Shown: positions 27,663-39,327 of the stretch, one piece after another | How positions within the stretch are numbered: position 1 is the stretch's first letter | Layout: every line of letters begins with the position of its first letter | Assembly (NCBI RefSeq): GCF_058153355.1 | Contig: NZ_CM177019.1 | Length of the DNA: 64,000 bases | Strand: one strand, 5' to 3' | Program-made: the position numbers and the translations under genes | Notes under the pieces: generated by a model | The model's database searches: none | What the model saw: the letters and a program-made list of their open reading frames with translations, nothing else | What the model was told of the DNA's origin: nothing

Positions 27663-29897
<2,235 letters not shown>

Positions 29898-30171
29898 TTA
29901 TAATTGAATTAATCCACGGATGCGATAGTTGAGATCTTACATATTGTTGGTTAAAGAGATGTAGATCAAATTGATCGTAATTAAGCTTTTTTGATTATGT
30001 CCGAATTCGGACAAATGCTTTATAAAAAAGGGTTTTAGCTTCCTATTCTTCAAGGAAGGAGGGCGAAAACAAAGCTGACAACCTTATTTTTCCGCCCTCA
30101 TTTCGAGGCAGCATTTTGTGCTCTGTTTAAAATTTGTGATCACAGTGTGATTTTCACAAAAGGCACACTAT

Positions 30172-31065
<894 letters not shown>

Positions 31066-31118
31066 TTACCTCATCAATCGCTTGTAGTTATATGTTGTGT
31101 TGTGCACATCTATCCGTT

Positions 31119-31146
31119 TAGACGTCCAGATGTAAAGATGAAGGAA
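31119..31146. promoter_or_regulatory. tandem MetJ boxes in the metF promoter
   Basis: tagacgtccagatgtaaagatgaa: consecutive 8-bp repeats resembling the AGACGTCT met-box consensus, about 60-85 bp upstream of the metF start. Confidence 0.7.
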
Positions 31147-31414
31147 AAGCTGAAGGGCGTCAACCGAAAAATGACCAATGATGGTGAGGAAAAATCAGGG
31201 AAGATGAAAAAAATTCAGGATAAAGGCCAAAGTTCCTCGTACCTGAACATGTGGAATATACCTCATTTAAGATGATATTTATTTGTTTAATTATTTTTTC
31301 TATTAACCGGTGCAACGAGTGTTAAAGCGTGTAATTTTAGGATTATATCAATAGTCACGGTTATACAAACAGTGATAATTTATGAAATAATTTTATTTAC
31401 CAGAGGAATAGCGC

Positions 31415-32389
31415 ATGTATCTTAATACTCAAGTTCAATATAATAAGTTAAATAAAGATGAAAAAAAGATCCTGTTGTTACAAAAGCTAGCCCATTTAAC
31501 TGATTTTACTTTTGACAGAATAGAGACATTTTCAGCATTTGGACAATCTACTGAAACAGGTGTTTTTAAATATAAAGATGGCAATGAATTTGTTGTTGTC
31601 CCCGGGGATACAGTAATATTAGGGTGGGATGCCAGTCTCAATAATATGGATGGTCCGACAAAACAAGAATTTGAAGAGATGTTGGAACCAGAAGGTTTAG
31701 ATTTGAATAATTATCTCACCGACTCTTGCACACCTGTCAGGAAGGTTACAATTTCCCCGATGCTGGTTGAAAGAAACGTTCACGCCGAACCAAGTTGGAA
31801 GGAAGTATCTCTTACGGACCCCCGCATCACAGAGAACAGCATGCTGCAAAAATTTCTGTCTGATTATATGGAAAAAATTAATCCTGGAGTTCACGAATTA
31901 AACGCAAGATTGAAATTACAATATATAGATGGGGATTTATTTGCACAAATATATGAATCAATTAGCTATGATGAGTTACTTCAAAATATCCAAAGCAATA
32001 GTTTTGATCTTCCGAGCGAAGATGAATGGGAATATTTATGTGGCGGTGGTTCCAGGACACTCTGGCGCTGGGGGAATAATTTCGACTATCAAATGAAAAT
32101 CCCATTTATTACTTCAGAAGAACCAACAACCTGGGATATAGAATGGCCTAATCAGTTTGGGTTGCAGATTGCATTTGATCCCTATCTTCAGGAAATTATT
32201 AATGATAAAGATATTCTTCTGAAAGGTGGCGATGGTGGGTGCAATCTCTGCGGAGGTGCTAATGTTGTATTAGGATTCTTGCCTGTGGCAACTTATTACA
32301 AAGGATATAATAAACATACGGACGAATTAGAATATATGGATGACATTGGAGACAATTATACTTCTTATCGCAGAATAATTCGTTTATGA
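31415..32389 (+). CDS. hypothetical protein, FGE-sulfatase (SUMF1/EgtB/PvdO-like) domain suspected
   Basis: 324-aa ORF, very AT-rich by eye; motifs FVVVPGDTVILGWDAS, SEDEWEYLCGGGSRTLWRWGNNF and NQFGLQI resemble the MVxIPGGxFxMG, AEWEYAxRGG...PWG and NxxGLxDM motifs of formylglycine-generating-enzyme-like domains; no signal peptide. Confidence 0.5.
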   Translation: MYLNTQVQYNKLNKDEKKILLLQKLAHLTDFTFDRIETFSAFGQSTETGVFKYKDGNEFVVVPGDTVILGWDASLNNMDGPTKQEFEEMLEPEGLDLNNYLTDSCTPVRKVTISPMLVERNVHAEPSWKEVSLTDPRITENSMLQKFLSDYMEKINPGVHELNARLKLQYIDGDLFAQIYESISYDELLQNIQSNSFDLPSEDEWEYLCGGGSRTLWRWGNNFDYQMKIPFITSEEPTTWDIEWPNQFGLQIAFDPYLQEIINDKDILLKGGDGGCNLCGGANVVLGFLPVATYYKGYNKHTDELEYMDDIGDNYTSYRRIIRL

Positions 32390-32440
32390 GTAAAAATTAT
32401 ATTTCAGGACAAGAAGTTATGCTCGGGTCAAGCTAATGAA

Positions 32441-33952
32441 TTGCTTAACGCAAGGAATAAAAACGTATTGATGAACACTGGGAATTTCGAGTCGATACAA
32501 ATCATGATCGACGCGCAAGAGTGGCGTAGCCTGCCGCTGCATCTGCGTCTGTATCACGCTTTTCGCCAATTGGTGATTTCCGGCGCATTGTCTGATGGCG
32601 CAAAACTGCCTTCCGCTCGCGCACTGGCCCAGCAACTTGGTCTTTCCAGAGATACCATCGAAAATGCCTATTCCCAGCTCCACCGCGACGGTTTTATGGC
32701 TCGCAGGCAGGGGGCCGGGAGTTTCGCCAGCCGCCAGGGGATACCGCATATTCAGGGCCAGCATGCGCAACCACCCTCGCCCGGACAAGTACCGGCTTTA
32801 AGCGCTCGCTGGCAGCCAATTGCCGATCGCGCAGTCTCTTTCGATGCCCGCCAGATGCAGACCTTTACGCTTGGCCTGCCGGAAACGCGAAACTTCCCGC
32901 TAAACATTTGGCAGAACTTTTCCCGCCAGATCCAACGTGAGCAGGCACATACGCTGATGTTAAATAGCGATCCGCAGGGCGAGCCACAGCTGCGCCAGCA
33001 AATTGCGCATTACCTTAATTTTGAACGCGGCGCGAAGGTAGATGCCGGGCAGATTGTGATTGTCAGCGGCGCACGGCAGGCGTTCTGGCTGTGCGGGCAA
33101 CTGCTGGCAGAGGCCGGACAGTCGGTGGCGATGGAAAATCCGGGCTATCCCGGCGCGCGTCAGGCGTTTTCTGCCGCACAGCTTAATCTTCTTCCCGTTG
33201 AAGTGGATGACGCCGGGATCCGGGTGGATAAACTGCCGCCCGCGCCGCTGGTTTACGTCACGCCCTCGCACCAGTTTCCTTCCGGTCATTTGCTCACGCT
33301 GGCGCGGCGTCATGCCCTGATTGCCTGGGCGCAGGCGCACAATGCGTGGATTATCGAAGACGACTACGACAGCGAATTTCACTACACCAGCGCGCCCGTC
33401 GCCTGTCTGCAAGGGTTAGACTGCGAGCAACGCACCCTGTATGTCGGCACTTTCAGCAAAACGCTCTATCCCGGCCTGCGCATCGGTTATCTGGTGGTGC
33501 CGACGTCGCTGGCTGCGCACTTTGCCGCCGCGCGTAATTTGCTTGATGGCGCAACGCCTGCGTTATCCCAACTAACGCTGGCGCGATTTATCGAGTCCGG
33601 TCATTTTGCCGCCCATATTCGCAACATGCGTAGTATGTATGCGGTGCGACAGGGGTGCCTGGCAGAGGCTATTCATCAGCACTTAAGTGAATGGGTCACG
33701 CCAGTGGTGACATCCGGTGGATTGCAAATGCCCTGCTGGCTGCATGGAGGTATTGATGAGCAACAGACGCTGAATGCCGCGCGCCGCGCCGGGTTAAACA
33801 TCGCCGGAATGCGCCAGTTCTGGCTGACGCACCCCGCGCACGCGGGCTGGCTGCTGGGATTCGCCGCCTTTACCCCCTACGAGATTGAACAGGGCGTCAA
33901 GCGTCTGCGGGCTGCATTATGCACTGAAAACGTGCGCCCAGCCGGGTCATAA
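32441..33952 (+). CDS. MocR/GabR-type regulator (GntR HTH fused to a PLP aminotransferase-like domain)
   Basis: 503-aa ORF; N-terminal GntR-like HTH (LPSARALAQQLGLSRDTIENAYSQLHRDGFMARRQGAGSF) followed by a roughly 350-aa aminotransferase class I/II-like region; true start may be an internal Met; GC-rich by eye. Confidence 0.8.
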   Translation: MLNARNKNVLMNTGNFESIQIMIDAQEWRSLPLHLRLYHAFRQLVISGALSDGAKLPSARALAQQLGLSRDTIENAYSQLHRDGFMARRQGAGSFASRQGIPHIQGQHAQPPSPGQVPALSARWQPIADRAVSFDARQMQTFTLGLPETRNFPLNIWQNFSRQIQREQAHTLMLNSDPQGEPQLRQQIAHYLNFERGAKVDAGQIVIVSGARQAFWLCGQLLAEAGQSVAMENPGYPGARQAFSAAQLNLLPVEVDDAGIRVDKLPPAPLVYVTPSHQFPSGHLLTLARRHALIAWAQAHNAWIIEDDYDSEFHYTSAPVACLQGLDCEQRTLYVGTFSKTLYPGLRIGYLVVPTSLAAHFAAARNLLDGATPALSQLTLARFIESGHFAAHIRNMRSMYAVRQGCLAEAIHQHLSEWVTPVVTSGGLQMPCWLHGGIDEQQTLNAARRAGLNIAGMRQFWLTHPAHAGWLLGFAAFTPYEIEQGVKRLRAALCTENVRPAGS

Positions 33953-36513: not shown

Positions 36514-38067
36514 TTACTTGATATCTTTCACGCGCATACCGTTGATCTGTTCATCCGTGATGGTGTTACCCGCTTTAAAGTAATCAACCACCGCGTGATA
36601 AACGTAATAACCGCCCGTCGTATTGCGCGCTTTACCCTCGGTAAACGCGGTAAAACCATCTCCACCATCAGCAAGGAAACTCTGAGTGGCAATGTGGTAA
36701 ACCGTCGCATCTTCAATCGGTTTGCCATTCAAAGTCAGTGAGATAACCCGCTGACCAACCGGCTTGCTGCTGTCGTACTTCATTTCCAGGCCTTTCGATA
36801 CCTGTAAAACGCCATTACTTAAACTTGCGCCGTGTTCCATCAAACTGCGTAATTGTTTACCCGTGAGTTCCATCGTCACCAGTTCGTTGGGGAACGGGAA
36901 GGTACTGATGACGCCACCCATCGTAATTGCACCCGCCGGGATCTCATTGCGGATACCGCCAGAGTTGGTTAACGCCAACTGGGTATTTTTACCCGCCGCT
37001 GCCAGTAAAGCATCTGCCGCCAGGTTCCCGAGAGAAGCCGATTCACCATAGGCACGTTTTAGTTCAACCGGCGATTGCGCCACCGTTTGCTGCACGACTT
37101 CATCCAGCTTTTTATTCCAACTATCAATCACCTGTTTTGTTTGCGGATCGGGCTTCCACTCGTCGGCGTAAAGGGTTTTAAGCTCGAAGTTTTTCACCGT
37201 AAAAGTGTGCGGCTTCTCTTTGTAGTCCAGTACCAGTTTACCCACATCAATCCCACCGCTGTCAGTGGAGAGGATGAGCGTATTGCCGACTTTAATCGGT
37301 TCCGGCGTACCCACATGTGCATGCCCGGTGATCAAAATATCCAGCCCTTTCACCTGACTTGCCGTCTGAATATCTTTATCCAGTGCGCGGCGCACATCTG
37401 TGCCCCCCATACTGGACTGGCGGGCCGGAACACCTTCGTGAATCAGCGCAACGGTCAAATCAACCTTGCCTTTGAGTTCATCGATATAACGTTGTAGCCA
37501 TTTAATTTCATCACGCGCCTCAATACCCACTCGCGTTGCCGCAGATACCGTATCATTAAAGGCAAATACACCGTGCAAACCAATCACGCCAATTTTCACG
37601 CCGTCTTTTTCAATGATGGTATAGGGCTTATCCCAGAATGATTTACTGCTGTTCTGATAAAAAACATTACCCTGCACAATCGGGAATTTTGCCTGACTCA
37701 ACTGTAATAACGTATTGTCCCAGCCGTGATCAAATTCATGATTACCTATAGTGGCCGCATCGAACGGCATGGTATTCATAATATCGATAATCGCCTTGCC
37801 TTTAGTCAGGCTGCTGATATACGGCCCGGTAAAATAGTCACCCGCATCAAAAAACCAGGTCGCTTTGTTTTTAGCTTTTTCTTGTTTAACAAGCGTAGTG
37901 ATATTTGCCCAGCCGCCAATATCTCGTTTACCGTCAGCAATCCACGGCACTTTATAAGGCTCTACATGTGCATGGAGGTCGTTGGTATAAATGATGGTGA
38001 CATCTTTGGCGCAAGCCCAAAACGGCAGTGTTAATGCGATACCCGCAGCAAGCATTTTAATTTTCAT
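36514..38067 (-). CDS. secreted 5'-nucleotidase / metallophosphoesterase-family protein (UshA-like), paralog 1
   Basis: ORF 36514..38073; signal peptide [20 protein letters not shown]; calcineurin-like motifs NDLHAH, GDYFTG, GNHEFD, ITGHAHV and a C-terminal 5'-nucleotidase-type region; start trimmed to the ATG preceded by a purine-rich SD. Confidence 0.85.
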
Positions 38068-38125
38068 AAACAATCCCTTCCAGTGAGATAAAGGATTGCT
38101 ACATTACGTTCTGAAAGGCTTTTTT

Positions 38126-38143
38126 ATGTGAGAATACTCACAT
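38126..38143. promoter_or_regulatory. 7-4-7 inverted repeat (candidate operator) in the divergent promoter region between the paralog-1 nucleotidase and the zinc-ribbon protein gene
   Basis: atgtgag-aata-ctcacat lies centrally in the 132-bp divergent intergenic region 38068..38199. Confidence 0.4.
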
Positions 38144-38199: not shown

Positions 38200-39327
38200 A
38201 TGTCAAATCTGTTTGCGATTAATGTCTGTAAAACGTTCGGTTGTCGAAATTTGGGATTGGCCTCATCGGAAGATTACAGTTGGCCAGACTATAAACTGGG
38301 TTTTCCGGCACTGCACTGCCAGGCATGCGGAAGTTACCCCCCTTTGTTTGATGAACAACAATTTCGTGACTGGTTGTCAGTTCACATGACTGCGTGTGCC
38401 ATAGAAACAGGGCATTTTTGTCCATCATGCTATTGTAAAGAAAAGATTTTTTATGGCCACAACCCGCAGGGAACACAACGCGTTCAATGCCGTTCATGCA
38501 AAAAAGTCTGGACTCCGAAACAGCAGCCAGCAAGAGAAATTACGTATCCCCAGTCCATTGAAACCGTTCAACTGTTCATGCCCTTTCAAGGAGCCAGCGC
38601 AGTACAAAAGCTCTATGTTTTAGTCAGTCTTGACGCCACTCGTGGCAACATCCTTCATCTCTCCACGAATTATACGCAACATCAGACAGGAGACAGTCTG
38701 CGGTACAGTTACAGAGGCAATACAGAACCAACTGAGCACCATAGCGATATTGTGCAGAGGGTAGATATGCGTGAAGCGCAATTCTTGCGCCGGAGCCAGT
38801 TCGATGAAATTCAGTATGGCAGTGCTGTGCTCAAGCGCAACGGCAAGGGAGCCATACTACGCCCGGTTATCACGGCACACGGGCATTTCAGAATACTGAA
38901 AATCCGCTTTCCACATGTCAAAACGCATATCATTTCACACGAATGTTTTCTGAGAGGCGCAATTATTACAGCCTGGGCAGATCAGTTCCGCCAACAACAA
39001 GGCGAACTTTGGTTCGTAGAAGAAGAAATCAGCGACCGTAACGCTGATATTCCCTGGCATTTTCAGGGAACGACATACCATGGTTGGTGGCAAAATCAGT
39101 GGCAACGCTGGGGGCAGGGGAATAACAGCAAGATGGTCTGCCTGCTCACAGGAGTCTCCTTAGAAAGGGGCGCAAATGTTTCTCTGGCAACCAGTCGTTG
39201 CTTTATCACATGGCTGACAGACCAACACGACTTTACCCAAAGCGCGTTATTATCCGCAGGTCGCGTAACGAAAATGCTGACCTCACTGGCGTTAAAATAC
39301 AATGAATCGCTCAATCCATCTTGTTAG
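38200..39327 (+). CDS. hypothetical Cys-rich protein with N-terminal zinc-ribbon(s), possibly transposase-derived DNA-binding protein
   Basis: 375-aa ORF; Cys pairs CKTFGC...CQAC and CPSCYCKEK-x14-RVQCRSCKKVWT resemble the IS1 InsA / IS1595-type zinc ribbon (CPSC...QRYLCSHCRKTWQ); remainder not recognisable; no signal peptide. Confidence 0.45.
   Translation: MSNLFAINVCKTFGCRNLGLASSEDYSWPDYKLGFPALHCQACGSYPPLFDEQQFRDWLSVHMTACAIETGHFCPSCYCKEKIFYGHNPQGTQRVQCRSCKKVWTPKQQPAREITYPQSIETVQLFMPFQGASAVQKLYVLVSLDATRGNILHLSTNYTQHQTGDSLRYSYRGNTEPTEHHSDIVQRVDMREAQFLRRSQFDEIQYGSAVLKRNGKGAILRPVITAHGHFRILKIRFPHVKTHIISHECFLRGAIITAWADQFRQQQGELWFVEEEISDRNADIPWHFQGTTYHGWWQNQWQRWGQGNNSKMVCLLTGVSLERGANVSLATSRCFITWLTDQHDFTQSALLSAGRVTKMLTSLALKYNESLNPSC

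Follow-up and report, generated by a model that had tools for sequence, protein, structure and literature searches.

We propose that a cluster of TGTGA/TCACA motifs between metF and katG, found in a 64,000-nucleotide stretch of E. coli DNA (the window), contains a weak, probably bidirectional extended -10 sigma-70 promoter at the edge of an inserted segment, where it would define an RNA of about 95 nt. We regard this reading as about equally likely to be right or wrong. In the proposed mechanism, the promoter core would start a minus-strand RNA at position 30143 (all positions are those of the window, unless K-12 is named), and this RNA would share its 3′ end, at the foot of a hairpin, with the metF mRNA. 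A predicted mirror start on the plus strand would yield a transcript antisense to the 3′ end of metF.

The cluster corresponds to the 28-mer TTTGTGATCACAGTGTGATTTTCACAAA quoted in a preliminary description of this DNA (plus strand), and the two palindromic TGTGA/TCACA arrangements noted there are real: TGTGATCACA is a perfect 10-bp palindrome and TGTGA-TTT-TCACA a 13-bp palindrome. The 10-bp palindrome has its sole copy in the 64 kb here (0.03 copies expected by chance; present in 3 of 100 shuffles), two of the three TGTGA...TCACA pairs lying no more than 20 nt apart in the window fall inside the cluster, and the cluster packs four TGTGA/TCACA half-sites into 24 bp. metF occupies 31062–30172 on the minus strand, the katG ATG lies at 29843–29841 on the same strand, and the spacer between the two genes is 328 bp long, as in K-12. 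Given the position of the metF stop codon, the cluster lies 12–39 bp downstream of metF and about 290 bp from the katG ATG, in agreement with the roughly 15–40 and 300 bp estimated before.

The perfect 10-bp palindrome is a minority allele in E. coli, as K-12 and most other strains have A, not T, at minus-strand position 30144, which gives AGTGATCACA. Among 5,425 complete E. coli genomes, the 36-nt stretch of the window was present exactly in 480, with a one-base difference in 3,782 and with two or three differences in 1,163. Comparison with the K-12 RefSeq annotation found no feature covering the cluster, and the annotation of the closest genome has no feature there either. A literature search by coordinates and region names returned nothing relevant; the sole match in a search by sequence was a PCR primer in a paper on LsrR (PMC8487509).

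On the minus strand, the order of elements is TTTATA, 17 bp, TGtGAAAAT, 6 bp and G, and the extended -10 element consists of TGn followed by a hexamer whose second base is A and whose sixth base is T. The metF row in Supplementary Data 4 of PMC10687069 gives a ‘Nearby TSS’ at K-12 coordinate 4133535, taken from Thomason 2015 (dRNA-seq). By coordinate mapping, the start cited in this table is the G of CACACA-G-TGATC inside the cluster, which places the 5′ end 7 nt past the hexamer. With an approximate sigma-70 position matrix, the minus-strand site scored 12.0 bits, the best value in the spacer and rank 16 of about 128,000 window positions. Shuffled sequence contained about 22 equally good promoter sites per window, so the matrix score alone proves nothing, and a simple consensus promoter scan called no promoter at the cluster. 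The weight of the argument lies in the exact geometry around an independently mapped start, as this start is cited in the published table. The -10 hexamer was invariant in 68 E. coli sequences, singletons aside, one of which is a confirmed G-to-A change at 30155. Of the E. coli haplotypes seen, all but the O157:H7 type, which has lost the TG, retained TG plus (G/A)AAAAT, and so did E. albertii, where the -35 element is poor.

The two strands of the 13-bp palindrome read TGtGAAAAT (minus) and TGtGATTTT (plus), and both fit TGnGAWWWT, with GAAAAT and GATTTT each preceded by TG. The plus-strand element has TTTAAA 17 bp upstream of GATTTT and scored 10.2 bits, as compared with 12.0 bits for the minus strand; its predicted start at 30161 is 18 bp away from the minus-strand start. 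Bidirectional promoters of E. coli are pseudo-symmetric and share a -10 element, with 18 bp being the commonest distance between divergent starts, although distances of 10 or 23 bp also occur (Warman et al., PMC12825309). We infer that the palindromic look of the cluster probably arises from a nearly symmetric shared -10 region of this kind. The cluster resembles the bidirectional sigma-70 promoters of Warman and Grainger in its short, near-palindromic A/T-rich -10 region read on both strands and in the predicted 18-bp spacing. It differs from them in that one start of the two is documented, through the citing table, whereas the plus-strand start is predicted. Furthermore, the cluster adjoins a stop codon instead of lying between divergent genes, and its hexamers are weak (4/6 and 3/6) and reliant on the TG extension. 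A Rho-terminated RNA antisense to metF has been listed at K-12 4132920, minus strand (PMC7815308, supplementary file 2), and it lends the predicted plus-strand start indirect support.

Table 1 Positions and variability of features in and around the metF-katG spacer. Segregating sites were counted in 12 divergent E. coli haplotypes
Feature	Position	Strand	Segregating sites	Remarks
metF third codon positions			107/296 (36%)	
-35-like hexamer TTTATA (4/6)	30173–30178	-		17 bp upstream of the -10 hexamer; overlaps the last metF codon and stop
metF stop codon TAA	30172–30174	-		C-terminus ...GVRPGL
Spacer between -35 and TG	30171–30159		3/13	
TGTGA/TCACA cluster	30133–30160			Contains TGTGATCACA (30135–30144) and TGTGA-TTT-TCACA (30146–30158)
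Extended -10 element TGtGAAAAT	30150–30158	-		TG 30158–30157, GAAAAT 30155–30150
TG to +1	30158–30143		2/16	
Equivalent of K-12 start 4133535 (G)	30143	-		7 nt after the -10 hexamer; coordinate mapping of the start in the citing table
Mirror promoter-like element	30126–30161	+		TTTAAA 30126–30131, TG 30146–30147, GATTTT 30149–30154
Conserved block (promoter core and unpaired 5′ part of RNA)	30107–30158	-	5/52	
Candidate transcript of about 95 nt	30049–30143	-		K-12 4133535–4133629, start as in the citing table
Unpaired 5′ part of RNA	30142–30107		3/36	
Long imperfect hairpin	30050–30106	-	16/57	The metF 3′ terminus maps to its base
Small ORF MLPRNEGGKIRLSALFSPSFLEE (MLPRNEGG...), then stop	30043–30114	-		ATG 30114–30112; 23 aa here, 39 aa in K-12
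Insert beyond mapped 3′ end	30048–29977		26/72 (36%)	
AT-rich single-copy segment of about 195 bp	29977–30171	-		Escherichia only among the genera sampled
Shared katG upstream region	29976–29844	-	1/133	Shared with Citrobacter and Salmonella

The start at 4133535 and the metF 3′ terminus at 4133629, 94 nt further downstream, delimit an RNA of 95 nt, with the two ends coming from two published data sets, the former through the citing table. In the fold predicted for this RNA, an AU-rich 5′ part of 36 nt is unpaired and the long imperfect hairpin forms the 3′ part, with a whole-RNA energy of -24 kcal/mol in the window and -29.5 kcal/mol in K-12. The base of the hairpin coincides with the mapped 3′ end of the metF mRNA; since no U tract follows the hairpin, this 3′ end probably results from trimming as far as the stem. 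In PMC10687069, the metF 3′ UTR is not among the outliers in read density. Selection on the hairpin could not be upheld, as it showed no convincing covariation and the observed substitutions were no milder than other possible transitions. An Rfam search with E-values up to 10 gave no family match except for a chance microRNA hit.

DapZ and MicL are 3′-UTR small RNAs that have their own promoter and share the terminator of the mRNA. The candidate RNA is similar to this type in its internal start near the gene end, according to the start in the citing table, and in the 3′ end common with the upstream mRNA, as well as in its conserved unpaired 5′ part and stable 3′ hairpin. In contrast to DapZ and MicL, it has no U-rich tail after the hairpin and no Rfam family, and its hairpin is not conserved in E. 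albertii. Such an RNA might act as a riboregulator, serve as the leader of a short peptide, or do nothing. The table of PMC10687069 also lists a start at 4135968, within the 3′ end of katG and 94 nt ahead of the terminus at 4136062, which may be another promoter embedded in a 3′ end.

The variability along the spacer (Table 1) sets the promoter core and the unpaired 5′ part of the RNA apart. This block is less variable than the metF third codon positions (Fisher p = 8e-5) and less variable than the insert past the mapped 3′ end (Fisher p = 7e-4), and the counts for the block and for the part after the 3′ end were the same in 68 sequences (51 metagenome contigs; alleles seen at least twice). 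Thus, with 5 of 52 positions varying in the block and 26 of 72 past the 3′ end, conservation follows the boundaries of the transcript. For katG, 20% of the third codon positions were segregating, a value between those of the katG upstream region and the metF third codon positions.

The segment downstream of metF that begins with the cluster contains no canonical terminator. Of 5,426 complete E. coli genomes, 5,425 had one copy of it, and there was no match in phages or genuine plasmids; the four ‘plasmid’ matches are records of 1–4.9 Mb, that is, mislabelled chromosomes. As the segment is single-copy in E. coli and matched neither phages nor genuine plasmids, we rejected an origin from a mobile element. 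The assumption that the cluster is native core sequence held in so far as the segment is native and single-copy, whereas ‘core’ applies to Escherichia only among the genera sampled, the relatives having a canonical terminator in its place. We compared the metF loci of 80 Enterobacterales species, mostly Enterobacteriaceae; the comparison took in E. coli and E. albertii but not E. fergusonii, E. marmotae or E. ruysiae. Most of them have a canonical terminator within about 30 nt of metF, for example GCCCTC-ttcg-GAGGGC-T8, with energies of -9 to -20 kcal/mol. Citrobacter, Salmonella arizonae, Pseudocitrobacter, Enterobacter and Leclercia keep the metF-katG order with spacers of 144–167 bp, and the katG upstream region follows directly after the terminator in all five; the spacer is 328 bp long in E. 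coli and 340 bp in E. albertii, both of which have the genus-specific AT-rich sequence of about 195 bp there. By parsimony, the short spacer is probably ancestral, as judged from these sequences. In strain ETEC4090, an IS1 is found in the metF-katG spacer (L090 748–1445), near the katG-side edge of the Escherichia segment.

A more far-reaching scenario is that the insertion of about 195 bp in Escherichia replaced the ancestral metF terminator and brought, or evolved, the bidirectional promoter together with a new RNA of about 95 nt whose 5′ part is conserved and unpaired; this RNA would be a genus-specific regulator between metF, a methionine/folate gene, and katG, a gene of peroxide defence, and might encode a short peptide as well. 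We consider this doubtful.

The main rival to the promoter reading is that the cluster is a non-adaptive by-product, in which an AT-rich insert makes promoter-like sequences and palindromes by chance, the start reflects pervasive transcription, and the low diversity is due to local mutation bias or linkage. We judge this explanation possible, though unlikely. The insert is indeed poor in G+C (30–43%), shuffled sequence gives about as many equal promoter scores, the remaining insert evolves at the neutral rate, and E. albertii is strongly diverged after the first ~50 nt; the lack of any annotation or literature found for the element is also in line with it. Against it, the 52-bp block shows about a quarter of the variability of the adjoining insert sequence, which is just as AT-rich, in the same genomes. 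Moreover, the conservation boundary coincides with the mapped RNA ends and the distance between the -10 hexamer and the start is exactly as expected, both points relying on the start in the citing table. A role of the transcript as the leader of a small protein gene, translated from the ATG of the small ORF into a peptide of ~22–39 aa, is the least probable of the readings considered. Seven of the eight differences between the window and K-12 fall at one codon phase and five of them are synonymous (p about 0.008), codons 1–22 carry 6 synonymous and 3 non-synonymous changes, and some annotators call a ‘hypothetical protein’. Nevertheless, the ORF has 9, 21, 41 or 75 aa in other strains and is frameshifted in some E. 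coli, and its ATG is missing from E. albertii. The mapped 3′ end falls within the ORF, at codon 22, the ORF is preceded by a weak Shine-Dalgarno sequence, and the hairpin tolerates the same changes. Three ribosome-profiling or small-ORF papers do not mention the ORF in their main text. With its unstable length and its absence from E. albertii, we rejected the ORF as a small protein gene, and it is unlikely to be coding.

The other two explanations concern the palindromes themselves. Read on the metF strand, the cluster RNA is UUUGUGA-aaa-UCAC-acu-GUGA-UCACAAA followed by UUUU, and the metF 3′ UTR could form a hairpin that acts as a weak intrinsic terminator or 3′ stabiliser, which we consider improbable. 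Like the canonical metF terminators of the relatives, the cluster lies just after the metF stop and forms a sense-strand hairpin followed by U (four U, 13 nt past the stop); the terminators of most sampled relatives are likewise within ~30 nt of the stop, and the difference between K-12 and the window lies in the loop. The terminators of most relatives, however, have a GC-rich stem (GCCCTC-loop-GAGGGC) and 4–8 U, with the energies given above, whereas the cluster hairpin has an AU-rich stem of -7.4 kcal/mol with G-C in 5 of its 11 pairs and a 3-nt bulge, followed by UUUUAAAC. The fold of 81 nt around it has a z-score of -1.2, and a terminator scan did not call the hairpin; an intrinsic terminator has a G+C-rich stem with a loop of 3–8 nt and a U-rich tract directly after it. 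One E. coli polymorphism is located in the loop, and three more disrupt one base pair each, every one in a different lineage (a G-to-A change in O157:H7, an A-to-T change in B2-like strains and a T-to-C change in a rare type), and are uncompensated; in E. albertii there is essentially no hairpin (-0.5 kcal/mol). The K-12 metF terminus itself is 123 nt past the stop (PMC10687069, Supplementary Data 4) and belongs to the class ‘Distant primary’, i.e., none within the first 100 nt of the stop. In the curated Term-seq list of PMC7815308, no 3′ end is entered anywhere in the metF-katG spacer. A caveat to these published 3′ ends is that metF is poorly expressed in LB. The metF terminator that had been considered for the cluster was therefore rejected because of its weak energetics, the pair-breaking variants and the published 3′ ends at +123.

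A CRP site has inverted TGTGA and TCACA 6 bp apart, which form the 16-bp core of the 22-bp site. The cluster shares the inverted pentamers with CRP sites, but the spacings between its half-sites are 0, 3 and 14 bp and never 6 bp; no TGTGA-N6-TCACA with up to two mismatches was found in 30120–30170, and the best alignment to the 16-bp core has at least three mismatches. Elsewhere in the window there are 26 matches with up to two mismatches, which is about chance level. CytR operators consist of repeats of the octamer GTTGCATT beside a CRP site. This octamer, with at most one mismatch, was absent between 27437 and 32167, spacer included, and the CRP- or CytR-like site suggested in the preliminary description did not stand. 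More generally, the nested palindrome over the -10 element and start (12-bp arms, 3-bp asymmetry) might be the operator of a DNA-binding protein, either CRP bound to a site of non-canonical form or some other regulator, and we deem this very improbable. Its overlap with the -10 element and the start is the classic position of a repressor, the half-site density and the rarity of the 10-bp palindrome described above as well as the conservation of the block agree with it, and a ‘katG promoter’ fragment, amplified with a forward primer that begins within the cluster, is shifted by purified LsrR (PMC8487509). Against an operator, apart from the missing CRP spacing and CytR octamer, the perfect 10-bp palindrome is the minority allele and half-sites are hit by variants in major lineages. 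In addition, the site proposed by the LsrR authors, AACAAT, is ~190 bp away, and the cluster itself was not examined in PMC8487509.

Other regulatory sequences were considered in the same region. The perfect 16-bp palindrome TGTCCGAATTCGGACA at 29998–30013 has the form of a DeoR/GlpR-type operator; it was rejected as such because its sequence varies among E. coli strains. A perfect CRP core with the canonical 6-bp spacing, TGTGAGAATACTCACA, is located at 38127–38142 in the 126-bp gap between the divergent ORFs 36514–38073 (minus strand) and 38200–39327 (plus strand), and it is plausible that this is a real CRP site. A sigma-54 promoter in the spacer was rejected as well: the pattern is GG-N10-GC (TGGCAC-N5-TTGC), and the nearest candidate, GGCAGCATTTTGTGCT on the plus strand at 30108–30123, has GG-N11-GC and is off by one. 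An RpoN SELEX peak was reported in the metF-katG spacer (PMC8743547), and K-12 has an intragenic metF sigma-54 site, TTGGCGCGAATATTGCC (IS48, PMC4591121). The equivalent of IS48 in the window, at 30294–30310 in metF, is altered at four positions, which look synonymous by eye. As its -12 element has changed from TTGC to TCGC, the site is probably weakened in the window strain.

On the other side of metF, the region directly upstream (31063–33952) contains genes that are not there in K-12, which has metL at this place. One of them is an ORF of 324 aa with a weak FGE-sulfatase-like match and the other encodes a 503-aa regulator with GntR and aminotransferase parts (MocR-type); in the closest genome, a 5′-nucleotidase gene is found near these genes. 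The region may be a strain-specific island.

If the promoter were noise, the cluster would be ordinary intergenic sequence. If the promoter reading is true, it would be wrong to take TGTGA/TCACA palindromes for CRP sites by default, since those with a 3-bp spacer would represent two overlapping extended -10 elements. Furthermore, metF of E. coli would have lost the canonical terminator of its relatives, which bears on the insulation of katG from metF transcription. The E. coli chromosome would then have, in a stretch that is among its best studied, an unannotated transcription unit, encoding a young, genus-specific short RNA whose ends have been mapped experimentally, the 5′ end as cited in the published table.
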